From: an uncultured Actinomycetes bacterium
GTDB lineage: Bacteria; Actinomycetota; Actinomycetes; Streptosporangiales; Streptosporangiaceae
Length of the DNA stretch: 64,000 bases
Direction: 5' to 3'
Assembly: GCA_963832095.1 (NCBI GenBank)
Contig: CAWHSW010000009.1
Coordinates: 14,994 to 78,993, forward strand
Shown here: positions 1,615-60,756 of the stretch, in pieces
Position numbering within the stretch: position 1 is the first letter of the stretch
Layout of the letters: each line of letters opens with the position of its first letter
Position numbers and translations under genes: made by a program
The notes under the pieces: model-generated
What the model was told of the DNA's origin: nothing
Databases searched by the model: none
Seen by the model: only the letters and a program-made list of their open reading frames with translations

Positions 1615-2115
1615 ATGACGATGGGGCCGGGGTACGGGCTGGCGGCCGGCGGGCAGGGCGGCATGCGCGCCTCCGACGCGGACCGGGAGCGGGCCGCCGA
1701 GGTGCTCCGGACCGGGTTCGCCGAGGGCAGGCTGGACAAGGACGAGTACGACGCCCTGCTCGGCCAGGTGTACACGGCTAAGACGTACGGCGAGCTGGCC
1801 ACGCTGACCAGCCAGCTGCCGGGCGGCGGCAGCATGCTCTACGCGGCGACCGCCCCGGCACCGGCCCGCTACGCCCCGCCTGCGGAACGGACCAACCGAC
1901 TGGCCGTGGCGTCGCTGGTCTGCGCCCTCGCGGTGTTCGTCATCCCGCTGCCAACCTCAATCCTGGCCATCGTGTTCGGCCACATCGCGCGCGGCCAGAT
2001 CAGGCGGACCGGGGAGAAGGGCGACGGGCTGGCCCGGGCCGGGCTGGTGCTGGGCTGGGCGGAAGTCGTGCTGGTCGTGGTGGCCCTGGTGGCGTTCACC
2101 ATGCTGCGCGGGTGA
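1615..2115 (+). CDS. DUF1707 (N-terminal) / DUF4190 (C-terminal membrane) protein
   Basis: ATG 1615 is preceded by GGGGAGG. The sequence has RASDADRERAAEVLRTGFAEGRLDKDEYDALL (DUF1707 signature) and a C-terminal hydrophobic IFGHIARGQIRRTGEKG segment. Confidence 0.8.
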   Translation: MTMGPGYGLAAGGQGGMRASDADRERAAEVLRTGFAEGRLDKDEYDALLGQVYTAKTYGELATLTSQLPGGGSMLYAATAPAPARYAPPAERTNRLAVASLVCALAVFVIPLPTSILAIVFGHIARGQIRRTGEKGDGLARAGLVLGWAEVVLVVVALVAFTMLRG

Positions 2116-2172
2116 CCGTTCGCCGCGGTCCACGGGTACCGTGAAAGCTGGGCACGCCGGCGGGAGGCTTCC

Positions 2173-2712
2173 ATGACGTACTACCCGGGACCTGGATACC
2201 GGATGGCGGCCGCGGCGCGCGGCGACCTGCGGGCGTCCGACCAGGACCGGGAACGCGCGGCCGAGGTGCTCAAGACCGGCTACGCCGAGGGCCGGGTCAG
2301 CAAGGACGAGTACGACGAGTATCTGAACCAGATCTACGCGGCCCGCACGGTTGGCGACCTGGCCACGCTGACCAGTCAGCTGCCCGGCGGCGGCGCGGCC
2401 CTGCTGCCGGTGCCGGCCGGCCCGCCGAAGACCAACTCGATGGCCGTGGGCGCGATGATCTGTGGCTTCGCCGAGTTCTTCACGTTCGGGCTGACCTCCA
2501 TCCCGGCGGTCATCCTCGGCCACGTCGCCCGCGGCCAGATCCGGCAGACCGGGGAGACCGGCTCGGGGATGGCCATGACCGGGCTGGTCCTGGGCTGGCT
2601 GGCCATTGGCCTGTGGGTGCTGTTCTGGGCCGGGGTGCTGGTGGCCGGGGTAGCCCTGGGGCACGGCACCGTACACACCGTGCACATCGGCCCGGGCGGC
2701 CAGCCCGGCTGA
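2173..2712 (+). CDS. DUF1707 / DUF4190 protein, tandem paralog of 1615..2115
   Basis: RASDQDRERAAEVLKTGYAEGRVSKDEYDEYL and ILGHVARGQIRQTGETG; same architecture as the upstream gene. Confidence 0.8.
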   Translation: MTYYPGPGYRMAAAARGDLRASDQDRERAAEVLKTGYAEGRVSKDEYDEYLNQIYAARTVGDLATLTSQLPGGGAALLPVPAGPPKTNSMAVGAMICGFAEFFTFGLTSIPAVILGHVARGQIRQTGETGSGMAMTGLVLGWLAIGLWVLFWAGVLVAGVALGHGTVHTVHIGPGGQPG

Positions 2713-2737
2713 CCGGGCGCGCTGCGACTCCGGCCGG

Positions 2738-4696
2738 TTAGCGCGGCCGGTCGGGCTGGGTGGACAGCGCGGCCACGAAGGCTTCCTGCGGGACCTCGAC
2801 CCGGCCGATGGTCTTCATCCGCTTCTTGCCTTCCTTCTGCCGCTCCAGCAGCTTGCGCTTCCGGGTGATGTCACCGCCGTAACACTTGGCCAGCACGTCC
2901 TTGCGCAGCGCGCGGATGTTCTCCCGGGCGATGATCTTCGAGCCGATGGCCGCCTGGATCGGCACCTCGAACTGCTGCCGTGGGATCAGCTCGCGCAGCC
3001 GCGACGTCATGGCCAGGCCGTACTCCCGGGCCTTGTCGTCGTGCACGATCTGGCTGAACGCGTCCACCGGCTGGCCCTGCAGCAGGATGTCCACCTTGAC
3101 CAGGTCGGCTTCCTGCTCGCCGTCCGGCTCGTAGTCCAGCGACGCGTAGCCGCGGGTGCGCGACTTGAGCTGGTCGAAGAAGTCGAAGATGATCTCCGCG
3201 AGCGGCATCGTGTAGCGGATCTCGACCCGGTCCGCGGACAGGTACTCCATGCCGAGCAGCACGCCACGGCGGCCCTGGCACAGCTCCATGATGGTGCCGA
3301 TGTACTCGGCCGGGGCCAGGATGGTGGCCCGGACCACCGGCTCGAAGACCTTCGCGATCTTGCCCCCGGAGGGGTGCCCGGACGGGGCAGCGGACCCGGG
3401 GGTGCCGCTCGGGAAGTCGCTGGGGTTGGTGACCCGCAGTTCGGTCCCGGACTCCAGAACCACCCGGTAGACCACGTTGGGCGCGGTGGAGATCAGCGAC
3501 AGGCCGAACTCGCGTTCCAGCCGCTCCCGGACGATCTCCATGTGCAGCAGCCCGAGGAAGCCGCAGCGGAAGCCGAAGCCCAGTGCGGTGGACGTCTCCG
3601 GCTCGTAGACCAGGGCCGCGTCGTTCAGCCGGAGCTTGTCCAGCGCGTCGCGCAGTTCCGGGTAGTCGTCGCCGTCCAGCGGGTAGAGCCCGGAGAACAC
3701 CATCGGCCGCGGGTGGTCATAGCCGGGCAGTGGCCCGGCCGCGGGCCGCGCGGCGCTGGTCACCGTGTCGCCGACGCGGGCCTGCCGGACATCCTTGACC
3801 CCGGTGATCAGGTAGCCGACCTCACCCGCGCCCAGGCTCTCCGACGGCACCGGCTCCGGCGAGATCACCCCCACCTCGAGCGTGTCGTGGGCCGCCCTGG
3901 TGGACATCATCAGGCTCTTCTCGCGCCGGGTCAGCCGGCCGTCCACCACCCGCACGTAGGTGACCACGCCCCGGTAGGTGTCATAGACCGAGTCGAAGAT
4001 CAGTGCCCGGGCCGGCGCGTCCGGGTCGCCGGTGGGCGGCGGCACCTGCCGCACGACGGCGTTGAGCAGGTCCTGCACCCCGTCGCCGGTCTTGGCCGAG
4101 ACGCGGAGCACATCGCCCGGCGCGCAGCCGATGATGCCGGCCAGTTCCTCGGCGTACAGGTCCGGCTGGGCCGCGGGCAGGTCGATCTTGTTCAGCACCG
4201 GGATCAGGTGCAGGTCCGCTTCCAGCGCCAGGTACAGGTTGGCCAGCGTCTGCGCCTCGATACCCTGGGCCGCGTCCACCAGCAGGATGGCGCCCTCACA
4301 GGCGGCCAGCGACCGGGACACCTCGTAGGTGAAGTCAACGTGCCCCGGGGTGTCGATCAGGTTGAGCACGTAGCGGCGGCCGTCCGGGCCGGTCCACGGC
4401 AGCCGGACCGCCTGGCTCTTGATGGTGATCCCGCGTTCCCGCTCGATGTCCATCCGGTCCAGGTACTGGGCCCGCATCTGCCGGTCGGTGACCACGCCGG
4501 TGAACTGCAGCATCCGGTCGGCCAGGGTCGACTTGCCGTGGTCGATGTGCGCGATGATGCAGAAGTTCCGGATTATGCTCAGGTCGGTATGACCGGGGCT
4601 GGTCGCGGGCTGCGCGCCATCCGGGAGGACCTGCTCGGGCACTGCTGGCACAGAAATCCGCCTGGTTCGAATCGGCTTGGTTCTCCATGGTCGCAT
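2738..4696 (-). CDS. lepA: Elongation factor 4 (LepA)
   Basis: [36 protein letters not shown] GTPase motifs and a LepA C-terminal domain. The start is chosen at ATG 4696 (MRPWRT...); the track ORF extends to 4861, so the exact start is uncertain. Confidence 0.9.
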
Positions 4697-5157: not shown

Positions 5158-5191
5158 GGGCTGTCACCCTGCAGTCGTGATCATGACCTGA

Positions 5192-5209
5192 GTGCCGCTA
5201 GGACGGCAC
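5192..5209. terminator. Hairpin GTGCCG-ctagga-CGGCAC between convergent rpsT and holA
   Basis: 6-bp stem seen directly. It is flanked by the direct repeats AGTCGTGATCATGA (5174) and AGTCGTGATCACGA (5212). Confidence 0.4.
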
Positions 5210-5231
5210 CAAAGTCGTGATCACGATGTTT

Positions 5232-7142: not shown

Positions 7143-8357
7143 CTAGCTCAGCGCCACCGGCTCGCCGCCGAGCCACACCCGGCTCGGCTTGAGGCCATAG
7201 GACCAGGCGAACGCGCCTTCGTGGTCGGCGTCCCAGAGCACGATGTCGGCGAACCGGCCGCGGACCATGCCACCCCGGTCCGGCGCGCGCAGCGCCTGGG
7301 CACCGCCCAGCGTGGCGGCGCGCAGCGCCTCGGCCACGCTCAGCCCGAACTGGGACACGGCCAGCGCGACCACCAGCGGCATGGAGGTGATCCCGGTGCC
7401 GCCCGGAGTGTGGTCGGAGCCCAGCGCGACCGGCACGCCCTTGTCCAGCAGCGCCCGGACCGGCGGGTTCTTGCCCAGCCGCAGCGCGGTCCCGGGGCAG
7501 ACCACCGCGGCCACACCCGCCCGGGCAAGCGCGGCCACGTCCTCGTCACCCGCCTGGTGCAGCACGTCCGCGGAGGCACAGCCGAGTTCGGCGGCCAGCC
7601 TCGCCGCACCGGTCCGGGTCTCACCGCAGGCGTGCACCCGGGGCAGCAGCCCGGCAGCCCGGCCTGCGCTGAGGATCCAGCGCGCCTCCCGCTCGGTGAA
7701 CCGGCCCTCCTCGCAGTACACGTCCACGCTGTCCGCGCCGACCGCGGCCGCGTCCGAGCACCAGGTGCCGACCGCGTCGATGTAGTCATGGCGGCGGCCG
7801 AAGTACTCCGGCGGCACCGCGTGCGCGGCCAGGAACGTGACGTGCACCCGCGGCATGCCCGGCTCACCCTCCAGCGAGCGCAGCATGCGCACGTCGGCCA
7901 GTTCGCCGTCGCGGGTCAGGTGGTAGCCGGTCTTGGCCTCGATCGTGGTGGTGCCGGACCGCAGCCACTCACGCAGCCGGGCCCGCACCCCGTTGCACAG
8001 GGTCCAGGGATCGGTGCCCCGGGTCACCGTGACGGTGGACGCCATCCCGCCACCGGCCGCGGCGATCTCGGTGGGCGACGCGCCGCCGGCCTCCATGGCC
8101 AGTTCGGCCCAGCGGTTCCCGGCGTAGACCGGATGGGTGTGCGCGTCGATGAGGCCCGGCGTGACCAGGCCGCCGCCCAGATTCTCCACCGAGTCGACGT
8201 CGACGATGTCCTCGACCACGCCGGGCAGGCTGGCGGGCAGCTCTGAGGCCCGGCCGACCCACGCGATCCGGTCGTTGTGGGTGAGGATGGCCGCGTTGCT
8301 CCAGATCTCGGACCCGGTCCAGAGACGGCCAATGTTAGTCAGCAGGCGTACGGTCAC
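7143..8357 (-). CDS. Imidazolonepropionase-like amidohydrolase
   Basis: GLIDAHTHPVY metal-binding motif, then TTIEAKTGY, HACGE and LGSDH. The track ORF runs to 8477, but codons 8358-8477 have poor GC3, so GTG 8357 (VTVRLLTNIGRLW) is preferred. Confidence 0.8.
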   Translation of the reverse strand: MTVRLLTNIGRLWTGSEIWSNAAILTHNDRIAWVGRASELPASLPGVVEDIVDVDSVENLGGGLVTPGLIDAHTHPVYAGNRWAELAMEAGGASPTEIAAAGGGMASTVTVTRGTDPWTLCNGVRARLREWLRSGTTTIEAKTGYHLTRDGELADVRMLRSLEGEPGMPRVHVTFLAAHAVPPEYFGRRHDYIDAVGTWCSDAAAVGADSVDVYCEEGRFTEREARWILSAGRAAGLLPRVHACGETRTGAARLAAELGCASADVLHQAGDEDVAALARAGVAAVVCPGTALRLGKNPPVRALLDKGVPVALGSDHTPGGTGITSMPLVVALAVSQFGLSVAEALRAATLGGAQALRAPDRGGMVRGRFADIVLWDADHEGAFAWSYGLKPSRVWLGGEPVALS

Positions 8358-8600
8358 CGGCGCGCCCCCCGTGACGCGTTCCTGGCCAGCATCAATGCTC
8401 CGATCGTGGCGATCGCCGCCGTGGGCAGGCAGAAGGGTGCGTGCATGATGGGGCGTACCTGCGTCATCCGCGGTCACCTGCCATAGCTCGTCCCTACTGG
8501 CCCCCCCGCCAGGGCCCGGTCAAGCGGGCCGCACGGCGGCCGACAGCTGGTGCTGTACGGATGCGGCAACCAACATATCGGTTCAGTTACGGTATTGCAC

Positions 8601-8615
8601 TACAGGGTCCCTGTA
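8601..8615. promoter_or_regulatory. Perfect palindrome TACAGGG-T-CCCTGTA (candidate operator); an identical copy lies at 9417..9431
   Basis: Seen directly. In unit 1 it overlaps a minus-strand promoter-like pair: TGTACA at 8612-8617, a 17-nt spacer, then TACCGT at 8589-8594. Confidence 0.35.
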
Positions 8616-9416
8616 CAGGCACTATCACAAAGAAGTCAGACCAGAAATTAACAGCCTTTCCCGAATCTCACCGTGCGTGGCGGTCTGAGTTGCCCTGACT
8701 TCCGTACGTGTCGGTAACTTCCGTTGACGTAGTACGTTCGGAAACCGGCCGGCCAGGCCCCCGCGAGCCCGGGGTGGCCGCGCCGCCGGGCCACCCCCGG
8801 CGGGGGCCGGCCGCCCCGGGCACGAGCCCATTGGACACCCGCCAGCCGCCTGCCCGGCTGCCGGTCGTCCGCTCGTTCAGCGCTGTTCGCGTGCTGTTCA
8901 GCGCCGGTACGGCCGGGGGACGGGCGCGGGCCGGCCGGGTCTGGCGGCCCGCGCTCAGTGGCCCAGCGGCGGCCCGGCCGGCCGCCCCGGCGGCGGCTCC
9001 GGCGGCGCCATCCGGCGCCGCCGGCGGCGGTCCCGCGCGGCCGTCCCGTGCCGCTTCATGCGGCCCGTCCCGGGACCAGGCGCCGGCCGGCCTGGACCGG
9101 GCCAGGACCAGCGGCCGGGCCGCCCGCTCGACCGCTCACCAGGGAAAATGCCGCGCAGCCGGGCTAGTGCCGCACAGCCGCGCAAAACATGTCAGGCTAG
9201 ATACCACGGCGGACAATGCAAACCATTGCATTTACCGCTTACGGCACCGTTCGCTTTACCGGATAAGGCTGTGCAAATTGCAGCGCTTCGATATCCAGCG
9301 CAACGCGCCGGGCAACCGCGGGCTCGGTTCGCCGGTTAGTGATGAACCTGATATGGTGCCGCCGCTTGGCAACAGCAGACGATTGATCATCGAGACGGCG
9401 AGCAGGCGGGGCACTC
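8601..9416. repeat. Tandem duplication unit 1 (~816 bp), apparently non-coding
   Basis: Aligns head-to-tail with 9417..10232. It starts with the 15-bp palindrome TACAGGGTCCCTGTA. The first ~160 nt differ from unit 2 at only 7 positions by eye; the G+C-rich core has many indels. Confidence 0.9.
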
Positions 9417-10232
9417 CTACAGGGTCCCTGTACAGGCACTATCACAAAGAAGTCAGACCAGAAATTAACAGCCTTTCCCGGATCTCACCGTGCGTGGCGG
9501 TCTGAGTTGCCCTGACTCCTGTACGTGTCGGTAACTTCTGCTGACGTAGTACCTTCGGAAACCGGCCGGCGAGGCCACCGCCAGCCCGGGTGGCCGCGCC
9601 GCCGGAGCCACCCCACGGCGGGGGCCGGCCGCACCGGGCACGAGCCCCATTGGACACCCGACAGCCAGCCAGCCGGCCGCCCGTCGGCCACTCGTTCAGC
9701 GCCGTTCACGTGCTGTTCAGCGCGGGTGCGGCCGGGGAACGGGCGCGGGCCGGCCGGGGCTGGCGGCCGGGCACAGCCGCTCAGTGGCAGCCCGGCCGGC
9801 CGCCCCGGCGGTGCCTCCCGCGGCGCCATCCGGGGCCGCCGGCGGCGGCCCGCACGGCCGTCACCGGCCGCTCGGTGCGGCCTGTCCCGGGACCAGGCCC
9901 GAACCGGCCTGAACCGGGGCAGAACCACCTGCCGGACCGCCCACCCGGGCGCTCACCAGGGAAAATGCCGTACCGCTTGGCTAGTGCCACGCAGCCGCGT
10001 AAAACATGACGGGCAGATTCCGAAGCAGACAATGCAAACCATTGCATTTAGCCGTCACGGCACCGTTCGCTTTACCGGATAAGCCCCTGCAAATTGCAGC
10101 GCTTCGATATCCAGCGCAACCCACCGGGCCACCGCGGGCTCGCCTCGCTGGCTCGTGATCAACCGGGTGGGGCCGCACAGCCGCTCTGGCCACCGCAGCC
10201 GGCTGATCAGCAAGGCGGGAGCCAGCGGGCAC
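9417..10232. repeat. Tandem duplication unit 2 (~816 bp)
   Basis: Same module order as unit 1. It ends 20 bp before the hflX stop codon (10252). Confidence 0.9.
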
Positions 10233-10251
10233 GGGCGTTCGGCAGAGAAGG

Positions 10252-11715
10252 TCAGCTGGTGGCGGGGACGGCGATGCTGTCGATCTCGGCGGCCAGGTCG
10301 GGCGGGACCCGGGCGGTCAGCTCGGTGCCGGCCGCGCCATGCCGGACCGCGAGGACCTCGCCCTCCTGGTGGGCGCGGGCCACCAGGTCGCCACGCACGT
10401 AGGGCACGACGGCGCTGACCTCGCGGTCCCGCTGCGGCAGCGCGGCCTCGATGGCGGCCAGCAGGTCGTCAAGCCCGGCCCCGGTCCGGGCCGAGACGAC
10501 CACGCTGTGCGGCTCGCGGAGCTGGAGCGCCTTGAGCTCGATCGGATCGGCCGTGTCGGCCTTGTTGATCACCACCAGCTCGGCGACGTCCCCGGCGCCG
10601 ATCTCGCCGAGCACCTCGCGCACGGCCGAGAGCTGCGCCTGCGGGTCCGCGTCGCTGCCGTCCACCACGTGCAGGATCAGATCGGCCTCGGCCACTTCCT
10701 CCAGCGTGGACCGGAACGCCTCGACCAGCTGATGTGGCAGGTGCCGGACGAAGCCGACGGTGTCGGTCAGGGTGAACCAGCGCCCGGCCGGGGTGCGCGC
10801 CTTGCGCACCGCGGGGTCGAGCGTGGCGAACAGCGAGTCGTCCACCAGCACGCCCGCCCCGGTCAGCCGGTTCAGCAGGCTCGACTTGCCCGCGTTGGTG
10901 TAGCCGGCGATGGCCACCGCCGGGACGGCCCGGCTGCGCCGCTGCTGGCGCTGCACCTGGCGGCCGACCGACATCTCGGCCAGCTGGCGGCGCAGCCGCG
11001 CGGTCCGGGTCCGGATCCGGCGCCGGTCGGTCTCGATCTTGGTCTCGCCCGGGCCCCGGGTGCCGATGCCGCCGCCGCCGGCCACCCGGCCACCCGCCTG
11101 CCGGGACAGCGACTCACCCCAGCCACGCAGCCGGGGCAGCAGGTACTCCAGCTGGGCCAGCTCGACCTGGGCCTTGCCCTCCTTGCTCCGGGCGTGCTGG
11201 GCGAAGATGTCCAGGATCAGCGCGGTCCGGTCGATGACCTTCGTCTTGACGACGCCTTCCAGGCGGCGCAGCTGGCTGGGCGTCAGCTCGCCGTCGCAGA
11301 TCACCGTGTCCGCGCCGGACGAGGCGACCAGGGCGGCCACCTCGGCGGCCTTGCCCGCGCCGATGTAGGTGGCGGCGTCCGGGCGGCCGCGCCGCTGTAC
11401 CAGGCCGTCCAGGATGACCGAACCGGCCGTCTCGGCCAGCCGGGACAGCTCGCGCAGTGAGTTCTCCGCGTCGGCCAGCGTGCCCTCGGTCCACACGCCG
11501 ACCAGGATGACCCGCTCCAGGCGGAGCGCGCGGTACTCGACCTCGCTGACGTCCTGGAGTTCCGTGGACAGGCCGCCGACCCGGCGCAGCGCGTGCCGGT
11601 CCAGCAGGTCCAGTTCGCCGACGTCGCTGTGGCCGGGTGCGCCCTGCGTCTCGGCGGGGCTGACTGGCTGCCCGGCTTGCTCAGCGTGCTCGGCGTGCTC
11701 GGCGGGACGGGTCAT
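10252..11715 (-). CDS. hflX: GTPase HflX
   Basis: VAIAGYTNAGKSSLLN, DTVGF, NKAD G-motifs plus the HflX N-domain. ATG 11715 (MTRPAEH...) is preferred over the track start 11883. Confidence 0.9.
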   Translation of the reverse strand: MTRPAEHAEHAEQAGQPVSPAETQGAPGHSDVGELDLLDRHALRRVGGLSTELQDVSEVEYRALRLERVILVGVWTEGTLADAENSLRELSRLAETAGSVILDGLVQRRGRPDAATYIGAGKAAEVAALVASSGADTVICDGELTPSQLRRLEGVVKTKVIDRTALILDIFAQHARSKEGKAQVELAQLEYLLPRLRGWGESLSRQAGGRVAGGGGIGTRGPGETKIETDRRRIRTRTARLRRQLAEMSVGRQVQRQQRRSRAVPAVAIAGYTNAGKSSLLNRLTGAGVLVDDSLFATLDPAVRKARTPAGRWFTLTDTVGFVRHLPHQLVEAFRSTLEEVAEADLILHVVDGSDADPQAQLSAVREVLGEIGAGDVAELVVINKADTADPIELKALQLREPHSVVVSARTGAGLDDLLAAIEAALPQRDREVSAVVPYVRGDLVARAHQEGEVLAVRHGAAGTELTARVPPDLAAEIDSIAVPATS

Positions 11716-11915
11716 CGGCTGCTCACGTGGGATCGGCGGTCTGGTCTGGGCTGGTGTGTCAATGCTGTCATGCCTCCGGGTTACGCTCACCTCAATAAAC
11801 ATCCGGACCGCGCGGGTTGTGCCCCGGATGTGGCCGGGAACACTGGAATGCTCGGGCGCGCCGCCATTACTCGCTAGTAACATGGCGGCTGACCGATGAC
11901 CGGGAGGAGCGCGGC

Positions 11916-57760: not shown

Positions 57761-60548
57761 TCAGTCCTGCCCGCCCCGGAGCGAATCAATCACGCTGTCC
57801 GCGTCCTCCGGCCGGACCAGCACGTCCCTGGCCTTGGAGCCCTCGCTCGGCCCGACGATGTTGCGGCTCTCCAGCAGGTCCATCAGCCGGCCCGCCTTGG
57901 CGAAGCCCACCCGCAGCTTGCGCTGCAGCATCGAGGTGGACCCGAACTGGGTGCGGATGACCAGGTCCGCGGCCTGCAGCAGCAGTTCCAGGTCGTCGCC
58001 GATGTCCGCGTCGATCTCCCGCTTGGCCCCTTCCGGGGCGGCCACGTCGTCCCGGTAGATGGGCTGCTCCTGGGCGGTGCAGTGCGCGACGACCTCGCGG
58101 ATCTCTTTCTCGGTGACGAACGCGTTCTGCAGCCGGATCGGCTTGCTCGCGCCCATCGGCAGGAACAGGCAATCGCCCTGGCCGACCAGCTTCTCCGCAC
58201 CGGGCTGGTCCAGGATGACCCGGCTGTCGGTCAGGCTGGAGGTGGCGAACGCCAGCCGGGACGGCACGTTGGCCTTGATCAGCCCGGTGACCACGTCCAC
58301 GCTGGGCCGCTGGGTGGCCAGCACCAGGTGGATGCCGGCCGCCCGGGCCAGCTGGGTGATCCGCACCACCGCGTCCTCGACGTCGCGCGGCGCGATCATC
58401 ATCAGGTCGGCCAGCTCGTCCACGATGACCAGCAGGTACGGGTAGGCGGTGAACACCCGCTCGCTGCCCGGCGGCGCGGTCAGCTTGCCCGCCCGCACCG
58501 CCTTGTTGAAGTCGTCGATATGCCGGAAGCCGAACGCGGCCAGGTCGTCATAACGGCGGTCCATTTCGCCGACCACCCACTGCAGCGCCTCGGCCGCCTT
58601 CTTCGGGTTCGTGATGATCGGCGTAATAAGGTGCGGTATGCCCTGGTAGATCGCGAGTTCCACCCGTTTAGGATCGACCAGGACCATCCGCACGTATTCC
58701 GGCGCCGCGCGCAGCAGCACCGACGTGATCAGGCCGTTGATGCAGGTTGACTTCCCCGCGCCGGTCGCGCCCGCGATCAGCATGTGCGGCATCTTGGCCA
58801 GGTTGGCCACCACCGTGCGGCCCTCGACGTCCTTGCCCAGGCCGACCACCATCGGGTGATGGTCGCTGACCGCTTTCGGCGAGCGCAGCACATCACCCAG
58901 GCTGACGATCTCCTTGTCCGCGTTGGGGATCTCCACCCCGATCGCCGACCGGCCCGGGATCGGCGAGATGATCCGCACATCCGCGCTCTTCACCGCGTAC
59001 GCGATGTTCTTGGTCAGCTGGGTCACCCGCTCGACCTTGACCGCCGGGCCCAGCTCGATCTCATACCGGGTCACCGTCGGCCCGCGCTTGAACCCGATCA
59101 CCCGGGCATCCACCTCGAACTGCTCCAGCACCTCGGTCAGCGCCGCGACCACCCGGTCATTGGCCTGCGTCCGCGCCTTGGGCGCGGTCCCCGGCTTGAG
59201 CAGCGCCACCGGCGGCAGCACGTAACTCGACTCGGCCGACCCGGCCAGGGTGAGCTGCTCACCCGGCGCACCCCGCCCGGCCCTGGCCGCGCCGTCCGGG
59301 CCCGCCGGAGTAGCCCGGTCAGCCACCGCGCCATCCGGGGCCGGCGGCTGGGCACCGCTTGAGCCGGACGGCCCGAAGCCCAGCGCGTCCAGCATCGACT
59401 CGTCCGGGTCCGCGGCCGGCTCGGCGCCGTCCTCGGCCGGCTTGGTCCCGGCACCGCCGCGGCGCGGCCGGGCGCCCGGGCCGTCGCCCACGATGGGCGT
59501 GTCGTACGGCCGGTGGTTGTCGCCCGCCTCGATGGCCTGCGGCCGTTTCCGGCCCCGGGTCAGCTGCCGGGTCAGCCCGCCGGGCGCGTCCTCGGCCCCG
59601 TCCGCCTCGCCCACGCCCGGCTCCGGGCGCTGGGTAAAGGCACGCAACTCGTTCAGCCGGTCCGGCACCCGGTGCAGCGGCGTGCCGGTGATGACCAGCA
59701 GCCCGAACCCGCTGACCAGGGCGAGCAGCGGGGCGGCCGCCCACGGGGTGAGCGCGGCCACCAGCGGCGCGGAGACGGCGAACCCGATCAGCCCGCCGCC
59801 GGAGCGCATGGCGATGGCGCCGGCGCTCGGGTGCGGGGTGCCCGCCGCGATGTGGATGAGGCCGAGCCCCCCGAGCATGAACGCGGTCCAGCCGATCACC
59901 ATCCGCCCGGTCTGCGCGTTCCGCTCCGGATGCCGCAGGTAGCGCCAGGCGAGCAGGCCGAGCAGGATGGGCAGCAGCCAGGCCGCCGAGCCGAACAGGC
60001 CCCGGATCACGTCGGACATGACCCGGCCGATCAGGTTGTCCATCCGGAACCAGGTGGTCGCGGCGACCACGATGGCGCCGGCCAGGTAGGCCAGGCCGAC
60101 CCCGTCCCGGCGGTGCAGCGGGTCCATGTCCCGCGCGTGGTTGCCGAACGCCCGGGCCACGCCGCCGACCGCGTGCGCGGCGATCATCCACAGCCCGGTG
60201 ATCAGGCTGCCCAGCCAGCCGAACAGGATCAGGATCGGGTCAGCCGTCCTCGGCTGCGCCGCGGGCCGGCTCCGGCCGCTGGCCTTGCCAGCCGGGCGGC
60301 GCTTTTTCGCGCTGCCGGATTTGCCCTGGCCATTTCGGCCCTGGCTGGGCCTGGCGCTGCGTGCTGCGCGCGGAGCTGGTCCGCGCGGGCATCGCGCTCT
60401 CACTGCGCACCCGCCCGCCGCTGCCGGAAGGGCGCACCGGACGGCTCTGACCTGCGGCGGAACGTCCCTGACCGCCAGCCGACCGACCCTGTCCAGCTGG
60501 CGTGCCGACCCTCGGCTGAGTAGTGCCCTTAGGGACACGAGTAGCCAT
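57761..60548 (-). CDS. ftsK: DNA translocase FtsK; the N-terminal tail is possibly in another frame (switch ~60345-60375)
   Basis: N-terminal TM segments, [13 protein letters not shown] Walker [14 protein letters not shown] Walker B and the gamma domain [24 protein letters not shown] 60548 opens [30 protein letters not shown]..., a typical S/G/R-rich FtsK tail, but in a different frame from the body. Confidence 0.88.
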
Positions 60549-60756
60549 GCTGCCAAAGTACCCAGCATTCCTGGGTGGCAGCCGTAACCGCCCAGGCGTG
60601 TCGCGGCGATCTTCCCGGGGCGCCGGGCGGGCCGGGTGAACAGCGGCTATCGCCGGTCTGGCGGGTCCGCGAATACTCGGCGGTTCCCATTGGCAGCCGC
60701 CGCCCGGCGAGCCACCCTGTAGAAAACCCGGCAGTGATGATCATGAACGGAGCCCG

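Follow-up and report, generated by a model that had tools for sequence, protein, structure and literature searches.

Control of histidine utilization (hut) genes is described for Proteobacteria, in which it involves HutC, and for Bacillus, in which the antiterminator HutP is used, and a literature search on hut control in Streptosporangiales found nothing. Here, we report on the spacer between hflX and hutI, the gene for imidazolonepropionase, in a 64-kb stretch of DNA (contig CAWHSW010000009.1 of assembly GCA_963832095.1, positions 14,994 to 78,993; hereafter the window, numbered from its first letter) of an organism that its HflX homologs place among uncultured Streptosporangiales. In the window, the spacer is present twice in tandem, and on balance we consider it probable, from sequence comparison, that this non-coding spacer acts in cis in the regulation of hutI and that the two-copy state is a strain-level variant formed at the pentanucleotide GCACT. 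The locus resembles the described hut systems in having a control region upstream of a hut gene and a dyad that overlaps a -35 element, but it is unlike them in that the spacer has neither a HutC-type operator (TGTA-N-TACA) nor a HutP-type NAG-repeat RNA.

SigA-type extended -10 promoters (TGnnnTAnnnT) are known from promoter studies in Corynebacterium and Mycobacterium. These actinobacterial promoters and coupled upstream open reading frames (ORFs) are matched by a block upstream of hutI in the TAnnGT hexamer, the preceding TG, the spacing of the -35 element and the xTGA overlap of an upstream ORF with hutI. As for the repeat, microhomology-mediated or homology-facilitated tandem events are matched by the head-to-tail, same-orientation arrangement of the copies, the 5-nt GCACT breakpoints and the single-copy state of the relatives. 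A fresh in-place duplication is a poorer model, the copies being 15% diverged as against 1.2–1.6% between the strains that differ in copy number.

The duplicated spacer and its single-copy relatives

The initial annotation of this stretch, made by a model from the sequence alone, had proposed a two-copy tandem duplication of about 816 bp filling a gene-free gap, with mosaic conservation between the copies. The duplication was borne out by pairwise alignment, by a repeat finder, which returned collinear blocks at a spacing of 816–819 bp in the window, and by BLASTN, which gave 85.7% identity across 821 nt. The two copies, of ~817 bp each, lie head to tail: unit 1 (U1) is proximal to hutI, and unit 2 (U2) ends beside the hflX stop codon (10252–10254), as had been proposed; the distance is 19 nt. 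Their features, in which L212 denotes a locus of the nearest strain, are as follows.

8600 to 9416, unstranded: U1, the hutI-proximal unit, taken as the extra copy; 85.6% identical to the L212 unit
9417 to 10232, unstranded: U2, the hflX-proximal unit, ortholog of the unit of the nearest strain; 95.4% identical to the L212 unit
8600 to 8745 (copy 2, 9417 to 9562), minus strand: left module, 94–96% identical to most orthologs
8601 to 8615 and 9418 to 9432: 15-bp palindrome P1, TACAGGGTCCCTGTA, which carries the predicted -35 hexamer
8632 to 8661 (copy 2, 9449 to 9478), minus strand: left-module hairpin with covariation, followed by CUUCUUUGUG
8746 to 9130 (copy 2, about 9563 to 9945), unstranded: GC-rich core, a hypervariable cluster of imperfect palindromes
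8875 to 8904 and 9694 to 9723: GTTCAGCGC repeats in the core
9131 to 9300 (copy 2, 9946 to 10116), minus strand: right module
9215 to 9232 and 10031 to 10048: palindrome P2, AATGCAAACCATTGCATT
9255 to 9267 and 10071 to 10083: TTTACCGGATAAG in the right module
9272 to 9282 and 10088 to 10098: palindrome P3, TGCAAATTGCA
starting at 9283 and 10099: GCGCT-N9-AGCGC
9301 to 9416 (copy 2, 10117 to 10232, beside hflX), unstranded: right end, internal and degenerate in copy 1
9411 to 9418, unstranded: duplication junction, GCACT-C-CT
10252 to 11715, minus strand: hflX, with Pfam domains GTP-bdg_N, GTP-bdg_M and MMR_HSR1; the MTRPAEH... start matches that of L212

The mosaic conservation was confirmed as well. 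The left module, AT-richer and opened by a palindrome as described before, is 95.9% identical between U1 and U2, with 6 differences in 146 nt, zero indels and the first 64 nt identical, and the identity is 85.3% in the GC-rich core, 85.2% in the right module and 70.2% in the right end. The by-module alignment gave an identity of 85.1% between the units, the between-species range of units being 80–91%. The core is 88–91% GC, with no longer stretch of this kind within the window, and GTTCAGCGC indeed occurs in it two times per unit. The palindromes claimed for the right module, and the other named palindromes and repeats, are present at their places in both units, where shuffles of the window lead one to expect 0 such matches, and an ORF listing agreed with the description of all ORFs of at least 60 aa as Pro/Arg/Gly-rich and switching frame between the copies. 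As to the absence of genes, the gap is mostly non-coding, but it holds an upstream ORF (8354–8467) and the predicted hutI promoter (8573–8617). Tandem Repeats Finder missed the units, its maximum period of 500 being shorter than the unit length, and no further copy of the unit was found in the 64-kb window or in ~90 fetched loci.

A HutI scan with one genome per species resulted in 80 loci. Fifteen distinct related assemblies extend across the gap, and each of them has one copy (15/15); a self-comparison of ~60 gaps revealed a large tandem repeat in the window only. In L001–L006, L010, L011, L090 and L091, the gap is 927–1118 nt long and holds one unit that is collinear with that of the window. 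A metagenome pattern scan returned two loci only, both single-copy. The nearest loci, L212 (identical to L214) and L215, are on contigs from two other samples and were retrieved by exact-protein look-ups with the 404-aa HutI and S20. The flanks of L214 and L215 are 98.4–98.8% identical to those of the window, the two contigs being 99.77% identical to each other, and the gap of L212/L214 and L215 is 1077 nt with one unit. That copy number differs between near-identical assemblies is a new fact, unforeseen in the initial annotation. L212 has one unit, which shares 95.4% identity with U2 (794/832) and 85.6% with U1, and 122 of the 153 diagnostic sites match U2, with 23 matching U1 and 8 neither; the unit is thus of the U2 type, indicating that U1, beside hutI, is the extra copy. 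We conclude that the non-coding hflX–hutI spacer has undergone, in this strain only, either a tandem duplication or the tandem insertion of an allele, and that the repeat, although real, is a structural variant of an ordinary kind in a putatively regulatory spacer, being neither a new gene nor a new RNA class.

The gaps of more distant relatives range from 125 to 1060 nt. In L008 and L012–L014, the TTATCCGGTAAAG motif and the half of the left module that is nearer the promoter are retained, and the core and P2 are lacking. L009, L020 and L021 have both the left module and P2, and the sequence that separates the two is unrelated. L008, L009, L012–L014 and L020 have no core. Because it is missing in distant relatives that have the flanking modules, the GC-rich core can be regarded as a lineage-specific filling of a variable spacer. 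Separately, a small internal direct repeat of ~85 nt, 85% identical, was observed at 229–440 in the gap of L056.

As a yardstick for sequence constraint, we used the four-fold degenerate sites of hflX and hutI, which are 81–91% identical between the window and close relatives. The left module is 94–96% identical to most orthologs and 82–92% identical to those of L003, L005, L010 and L091; the part nearest the promoter (~50–87 nt) is conserved also in L008, L009, L012–L014, L016 and L020–L021, and the last 26 nt in L022. The corresponding values are 79–93% for the right module (~73% to L091), 75–85% for the core (58–61% to L091), which is at or below the four-fold-site identity, and 54–79% for the right end (45–57% to L091). 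Judged by this yardstick, the left module is constrained and the right module is weakly so, and the core, as filler, and the right end are not. The mosaic between U1 and U2 mirrors that among the orthologs, indicating that it is a property of the spacer and not of the duplication.

Origin of the extra unit

The pentanucleotide GCACT is present at 8597–8601, just before unit 1, and again at 9411–9415, at the junction, and the single-copy orthologs all end with ...GG(G)CACTGGC... before hflX. Its presence at both breakpoints indicates that the event used 5-nt microhomology, and the locus has the marks of a tandem event of this kind, with the copies head to tail in register and the relatives single-copy. 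A recent in-place duplication was rejected: the 85.1% identity of U1 and U2 does not exceed that of U1 with units from other species (86.5% for L090 and 85.8% for L011), and U2 has 95.4% identity with the unit of the sister strain.

Two origins were considered. According to the first, the duplication would be old, its age being ~3 times that of the separation from the L212 strain, which would later have lost U1 via recombination in the left modules, of which the first 64 nt are identical. According to the second, U1 would be a recently imported allele of a related species, introduced by homology-facilitated illegitimate recombination, for which the conserved left module or the promoter may have served as the anchor and GCACT as the joint. 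We lean slightly toward the recent import, because it explains without coincidence that the divergence of the copies equals the between-species distance, and because it does not need an unstable 817-bp tandem to persist long. An imported tract reaching into hutI was rejected: the flanks on either side of the repeat show a uniform divergence of 1.2–1.6% from L214, with no divergent tract and no excess divergence beside U1.

A relative-rate comparison with L001 and L006 as outgroups gave 21 U1-specific versus 8 U2-specific changes in the right end (p ~0.01), and the right module was found to have decayed in the hflX-proximal U2 (14–18 versus 4–8 changes). The core and the left module were symmetric, the left module with 3 versus 3 lineage-specific changes. 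The complementary decay of the right end and the right module fits an old duplication and, at marginal p values, hints at a link of the right end with hflX and of the right module with the hutI side.

It has also to be considered that the two-copy state could be an assembly artefact of a long-read metagenome with several related strains or species, the true genome being single-unit. The two-copy state is confined to the window assembly, two independent assemblies with flanks 98.4–98.8% identical to it are single-unit, and a contig that is 99.88% identical to the window (L213) ends at 8597, which is exactly the repeat boundary. Furthermore, many of the relatives are metagenome-assembled genomes of the 'MFD' series, obtained by deep Nanopore sequencing of Danish soils (PMC12313526), and related species co-occur in one sample, MFD09603 (L010, L011 and L021). 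In some contigs (L002, L003, L005 and L008), lepA, the MDMPI-family gene, an FAD-oxidase gene and the malate synthase gene are split or truncated, and they are intact in near-identical twins; this indicates indel errors in the assemblies and calls for caution on single-base indels in the GC-rich core. Fragmented genes in several of the related ENA contigs show such indel noise. However, copies that differ by 15% exclude the mis-count of an identical repeat, and the GCACT junction, which joins a right end to a left module, is found in no single-copy genome and cannot be created by the overlap of homologous reads. A chimera of alleles would yield one hybrid unit, not two in register, both flanks are of the same strain by their distance to L214, and a contig break at the repeat boundary is what a real repeat is expected to cause. 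An assembly artefact is, in our estimation, very unlikely.

Coding, mobile-element and RNA readings of the unit

The substitutions in ten aligned units had no 3-nt periodicity in any of the four modules (chi-square p = 0.29–0.83), whereas a control, the initial 900 nt of hutI from these genomes, gave 10/6/90 substitutions by codon position (p = 2.5e-28). No ORF in ~70 gaps of relatives had the coding profile of GC3 far above GC2. The two conserved minus-strand 'peptide tails' singled out earlier are open in different frames in different lineages, and a minus-strand small protein was rejected as a candidate, the 74-aa ORF of L008 being in another frame than that of the window and L009 and having no coding signal. 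The 265-aa ORF that spans the junction had one weak homolog among 5.8 billion proteins. The view of the initial annotation that the spacer, peptide tails included, is non-coding is thus supported by the absence of periodicity, of a coding GC profile and of conserved frames, and no ORF with a coding-like GC profile was present in the gap of any relative.

These results bear directly on the possibility that the unit is a duplicated decayed coding gene or a degenerate mobile element, such as a miniature inverted-repeat transposable element, an insertion sequence (IS) remnant or a phage attachment-site remnant. In its favour, long open frames are present in the GC-rich core, the core resembles an insertion relative to the L008-type relatives, and there are palindromes near both unit ends. 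A decayed gene is, however, opposed by the lack of codon periodicity in all four modules, by the flat GC1/GC2/GC3 of every ORF in every relative and by the single weak protein homolog. A mobile element is opposed by the lack of another copy in the 64-kb window or ~90 loci and of any match among 72,556 plasmids or 50,697 phage genomes, by the lack of terminal inverted repeats and of a target-site duplication, and by the position, which is fixed and syntenic in all relatives. A scan of viral contigs with a 15-base AT-rich pattern gave chance hits only, the pattern being too short to inform. An origin from a gene or a mobile element is largely refuted, and we consider it extremely improbable.

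A further possibility, raised in part by the initial annotation, is that each unit represents the whole or a part of a non-coding RNA (ncRNA) of the minus strand, either a long 3′ untranslated region (3′UTR) of hflX or an independent RNA of ~0.75 kb, of which the window would have two tandem copies. Such an RNA would have the P2 hairpin region as its 5′ domain and the left-module hairpin with a U-rich run as its 3′ domain, arranged around a variable cluster of GC-rich hairpins. In 11 related sequences, the left-module hairpin (10 bp) had 92.7% of the cells paired and 3 pairs changed on both sides, a score that 2/500 shuffles reached, and its G.U pairs are present only on the minus strand and would be A.C mismatches if read on the plus strand. 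Below P2, most close relatives have a lower stem of GCGG/CCGC, which is rebuilt as CAGGACA/UGUCCUG in L091 and L007, and in L017 and L023 pairs six and seven of the P2 stem switch from A-U to C-G. In addition, U2, away from the promoter, has kept its left module as well as U1 has, and the core folds better than shuffled sequence. The two local covariation signals favour an RNA of the minus strand, but they are suggestive only, coming from few and closely related sequences, and the covariation measure reaches such a level by chance in 5–25% of unconstrained alignments, according to the tool's own trials.

Several results argue against an RNA. A search of the window from 7500 to 11000 with Rfam 15 (E<=10), a check proposed in the initial annotation, matched no family in the gap and gave two weak chance matches inside hflX only, and a search of seven diverse relatives (E<=1) gave 0 matches. 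The conserved modules fold no better than shuffled sequence on either strand, with z values of +0.16 and -0.03 for the left module and of +0.06 and +0.05 for the right module. The core reaches a z value of ~ -3 but does so to the same degree on the plus strand, as a series of GC-rich palindromes would, and its hairpins have uncompensated mismatches between the copies and among the orthologs. Moreover, a consensus scan found no promoter-like or terminator-like site inside the unit, and the core is missing in relatives that retain the flanking modules. The suggestion of an ncRNA is at best weakly upheld, with modest covariation in one short hairpin, and we regard an RNA of this kind as unlikely. 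Its fullest form, in which the unit would be an unannotated minus-strand RNA of ~0.75 kb (derived from the hflX 3′UTR or independent), specific to a narrow clade of uncultured soil Streptosporangiales, with P2 and left-module domains around an expandable array of GC-rich hairpins and with a second copy acquired from another species, seems quite unlikely.

The core can also be compared with clusters of repetitive extragenic palindromic (REP) elements or bacterial interspersed mosaic elements (BIME) and with long structured 3′UTRs. It is like them in consisting of GC-rich imperfect palindromes between genes of the same strand, in its z value of -3 and in its variability between close relatives, but unlike REP/BIME-type elements, it is not dispersed, having no copy elsewhere in the window or fetched loci, and it has no REP-like consensus. 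The left-module hairpin with its U-rich run may mark the end of the upstream transcript.

The proposed hutI control region and the P2 dyad

The ~250 bp proximal to hutI (8354–8599) are outside the repeat. The gene 3′ of the spacer, an 'amidohydrolase', is hutI according to the TIGR01224 equivalog model (306 bits versus a cutoff of 298), and HutI is annotated at 404 aa in relatives. The features of this region are as follows.

7143 to 8357, minus strand: hutI (imidazolonepropionase; TIGR01224), with the real start at the GTG of 8357
8354 to 8467, minus strand: upstream ORF of 37 codons (MTQVRPIMHAPFCLPTAAIATIGALMLARNASRGARR), with its ATG at 8467, an AGGTGA Shine-Dalgarno sequence at 8474–8479 and a TGA that overlaps the GTG of hutI (GTGA)
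8573 to 8617, minus strand: predicted hutI promoter block, from the conservation pattern in 53 loci
8612 to 8617, minus strand: predicted -35 element TGTACA, then a 17-nt spacer
8589 to 8599, minus strand: predicted extended -10 element TGCAATACCGT, outside the repeat
8573 to 8583, minus strand: invariant AACCGATATGT around the putative transcription start (near 8582)

Located 100–300 nt upstream of hutI on the gene strand, the block reads cCTTGTAc, ~17 nt, and GTGCAATAcCGTrACtgAACCGATATGTtGG. Each of 53 loci from many genera of Streptosporangiales has a single match to the pattern GCAMTAVSGTNWCNNRAHCGATAT, without exception on the gene strand; cultured carriers of the block include Streptosporangium, Planotetraspora and Actinomadura. 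The -10 hexamer TAnnGT keeps its T, its A and its last T and varies in the middle, a TG is present three bases upstream, and a -35-like TTGTA, TGTACA or TTTACA lies 17–18 nt from the -10. Hexamer conservation, TG and spaced -35 together form the pattern of an actinobacterial extended -10 promoter. The block of ~32 nt is therefore probably an extended -10 promoter together with an unusually conserved ~20 nt around the transcription start. In ordinary promoters, the ~20 nt directly after the -10 are not kept nearly unchanged from genus to genus, as they are here (ACTGAACCGATATGTTGG), and this hints at an overlapping operator or a 5′-end RNA signal. A universal hairpin just upstream of GTGCAATACCGT was rejected, the mean z being 0.0 over 51 loci, so that such a hairpin exists in some lineages and is not general. 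A riboswitch-like fold of the hutI leader was likewise rejected, RNAalifold having found essentially nothing across 25 diverse leaders.

An ORF is present at the position of the upstream ORF in 50 loci. It has 9–37 codons, and its peptide sequence is not conserved, being hydrophobic in the clade of the window (…APFCLPTAAIATIGALMLA…), but in 48 of the 50 its stop and the hutI start share a 4-nt overlap (GTGA/ATGA). From this arrangement, the upstream ORF is predicted to be translationally coupled to hutI.

The -35 and the -10 are on opposite sides of the breakpoint at 8600, so that the repeat holds only the 15-bp palindrome and the -35 of the promoter, and the extended -10 and the block downstream of it (8573–8599) are present once only. 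The promoter itself is thus not duplicated, and the earlier idea of a duplicated promoter region has to be narrowed to a doubling of the upstream half of the predicted hutI promoter, with a single -10 and a single leader.

Outside the units of the window and its close relatives, 7 further lineages with diverged flanks have P2 (TGCAAT-NN-WTTGCA) at 56–250 nt past the hflX stop, at the following positions.

P2 sites in relatives: L009, 7628 to 7641; L016, 3333 to 3346; L017, 3307 to 3320; L019, 3311 to 3324; L020, 3433 to 3446; L023, 3328 to 3341; L056, 3179 to 3192

There is no P2 outside the hflX–hutI gap in any locus or in the 64-kb window, and 5 of the 7 TGCAAT hexamers of the window are inside the gap, all in gene orientation. 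The invariance of the half-sites with diverged flanks suggests that P2 is recognized by a protein. The earlier suggestion of an array of regulator sites is thus upheld as far as operator-like palindromes and the conservation of P2 across genera are concerned, and protein binding may be presumed from them. In its 14-bp dyad with 5-nt half-sites (TGCAA-N4-TTGCA), P2 is like the operators of LacI/PurR- or ArgR-type regulators, a resemblance to be taken as a lead and not as a test, and the dyad of one lineage, L056, has a central CG (TGCAATCGATTGCA). It is unlike such operators in being 56–250 nt past the upstream stop and 300–650 nt from the predicted hutI promoter, and in its compensatory changes at the base of the stem, which a duplex operator does not need. 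As candidate regulators, GlnR, PhoP, sigma-28, HutC, RamB, ArgR and LacI were considered, and none fits well enough to be claimed. In L017, L019 and L023, GCAATAAC and GCAATTAC repeats were also noted just after P2.

From these observations, a model of the spacer can be proposed. Read from hflX to hutI, a unit would consist of a poorly conserved tail, a module with operator-like palindromes that have the half-site TGCAA in common, the fast-evolving core and the conserved left module. The left module would form the upstream half of the hutI promoter, with the -35 in a 15-bp palindrome and with a hairpin and U-rich run. The conserved modules are most likely cis-regulatory for hutI and would act on its expression as protein-binding sites, and the hairpins of the core and the left module may stop or dampen read-through from hflX. 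The segment of 8354–8599 would be the working control region of hutI, with a SigA-type promoter, a leader of ~115 nt and the coupled upstream ORF. The duplication would add a second set of the upstream sites 0.8 kb further away and leave the -10, the transcription start, the leader and the upstream ORF single.

Some results weigh against a cis-regulatory spacer with a strain-level duplication. The two-copy state is known from one assembly, and the relative-rate asymmetries between the units are marginal (p = 0.01–0.2). The left module of U2, with 3 versus 3 changes, is as conserved as that of U1 though away from the -10, which a purely promoter-proximal role leaves unexplained. A sigma-70 consensus scan found no site anywhere in 8300–10350, the predicted hutI promoter included, and a search for intrinsic terminators in the same interval found 0 sites where 1.0 is expected by chance. 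Finally, the compensatory changes at the stem base of P2 and in the left-module hairpin, with G.U pairs on the minus strand, fit RNA better than duplex DNA sites.

The order of genes on the minus strand is hflX, the gap, hutI, the MDMPI-family gene and holA, with rpsT and then lepA on the plus strand. In most of the 80 loci, from Trebonia to Actinomadura and Planomonospora, hflX is directly upstream of hutI, and this adjacency is, judged by its distribution, ancestral across Streptosporangiales. The junction of two gene neighbourhoods that had been pointed out at this place is thus irrelevant to the repeat, the adjacency being ancestral and the other assemblies single-copy. Exact-protein look-ups of a 444-aa form of HutI, the 487-aa HflX and the 265-aa junction-spanning ORF returned no record.

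Other differences were observed around the locus. The 5′ end of hflX has a cluster of 10 differences (window 11600–11800 versus L212/L214/L215), and the AEH/AEQ repeat of the HflX N-terminus is polymorphic in length, with MTRPAEHAEHAEQ in the window and MTRPAEQAEHAEHAEQ in L212. The sister strain has ~365 extra bases between rpsT and holA (L212, 7163–7525; L214, 8268–8714) that are absent from the window (5158–5231) and from the short-read contig L216, adding another indel polymorphism at a distance of less than 5 kb from the repeat. L001 and L002 have an identical HflX protein (P0013), and their neighbourhoods differ downstream of dapF, where L002 has the gene of a 579-aa DDE transposase (1919–3658) and L001 has two small ORFs (2162–3730), an IS insertion polymorphism. 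In a distant part of the window, ARAGORN called a tRNA-Gln (anticodon TTG) of 96 nt, which is unusually long, at 60287–60382, inside a minus-strand ORF of 935 aa (57761–60568); one of the two is at fault, the tRNA call being false or the ORF over-extended.

This locus represents a clean case of structural polymorphism in non-coding DNA within a species of soil actinomycete, the additional unit being either much older than the strains it tells apart or more foreign than they are. It opens no long-standing question and implies no new molecular mechanism; if confirmed by read data, it could be a record of cross-species illegitimate recombination in uncultured bacteria. The by-products of the analysis, namely the conserved putative promoter and leader of hutI and its predicted coupled upstream ORF across Streptosporangiales and the TGCAAT-NN-ATTGCA dyad after hflX, would provide unannotated and testable regulatory features of histidine catabolism in Streptosporangiales.

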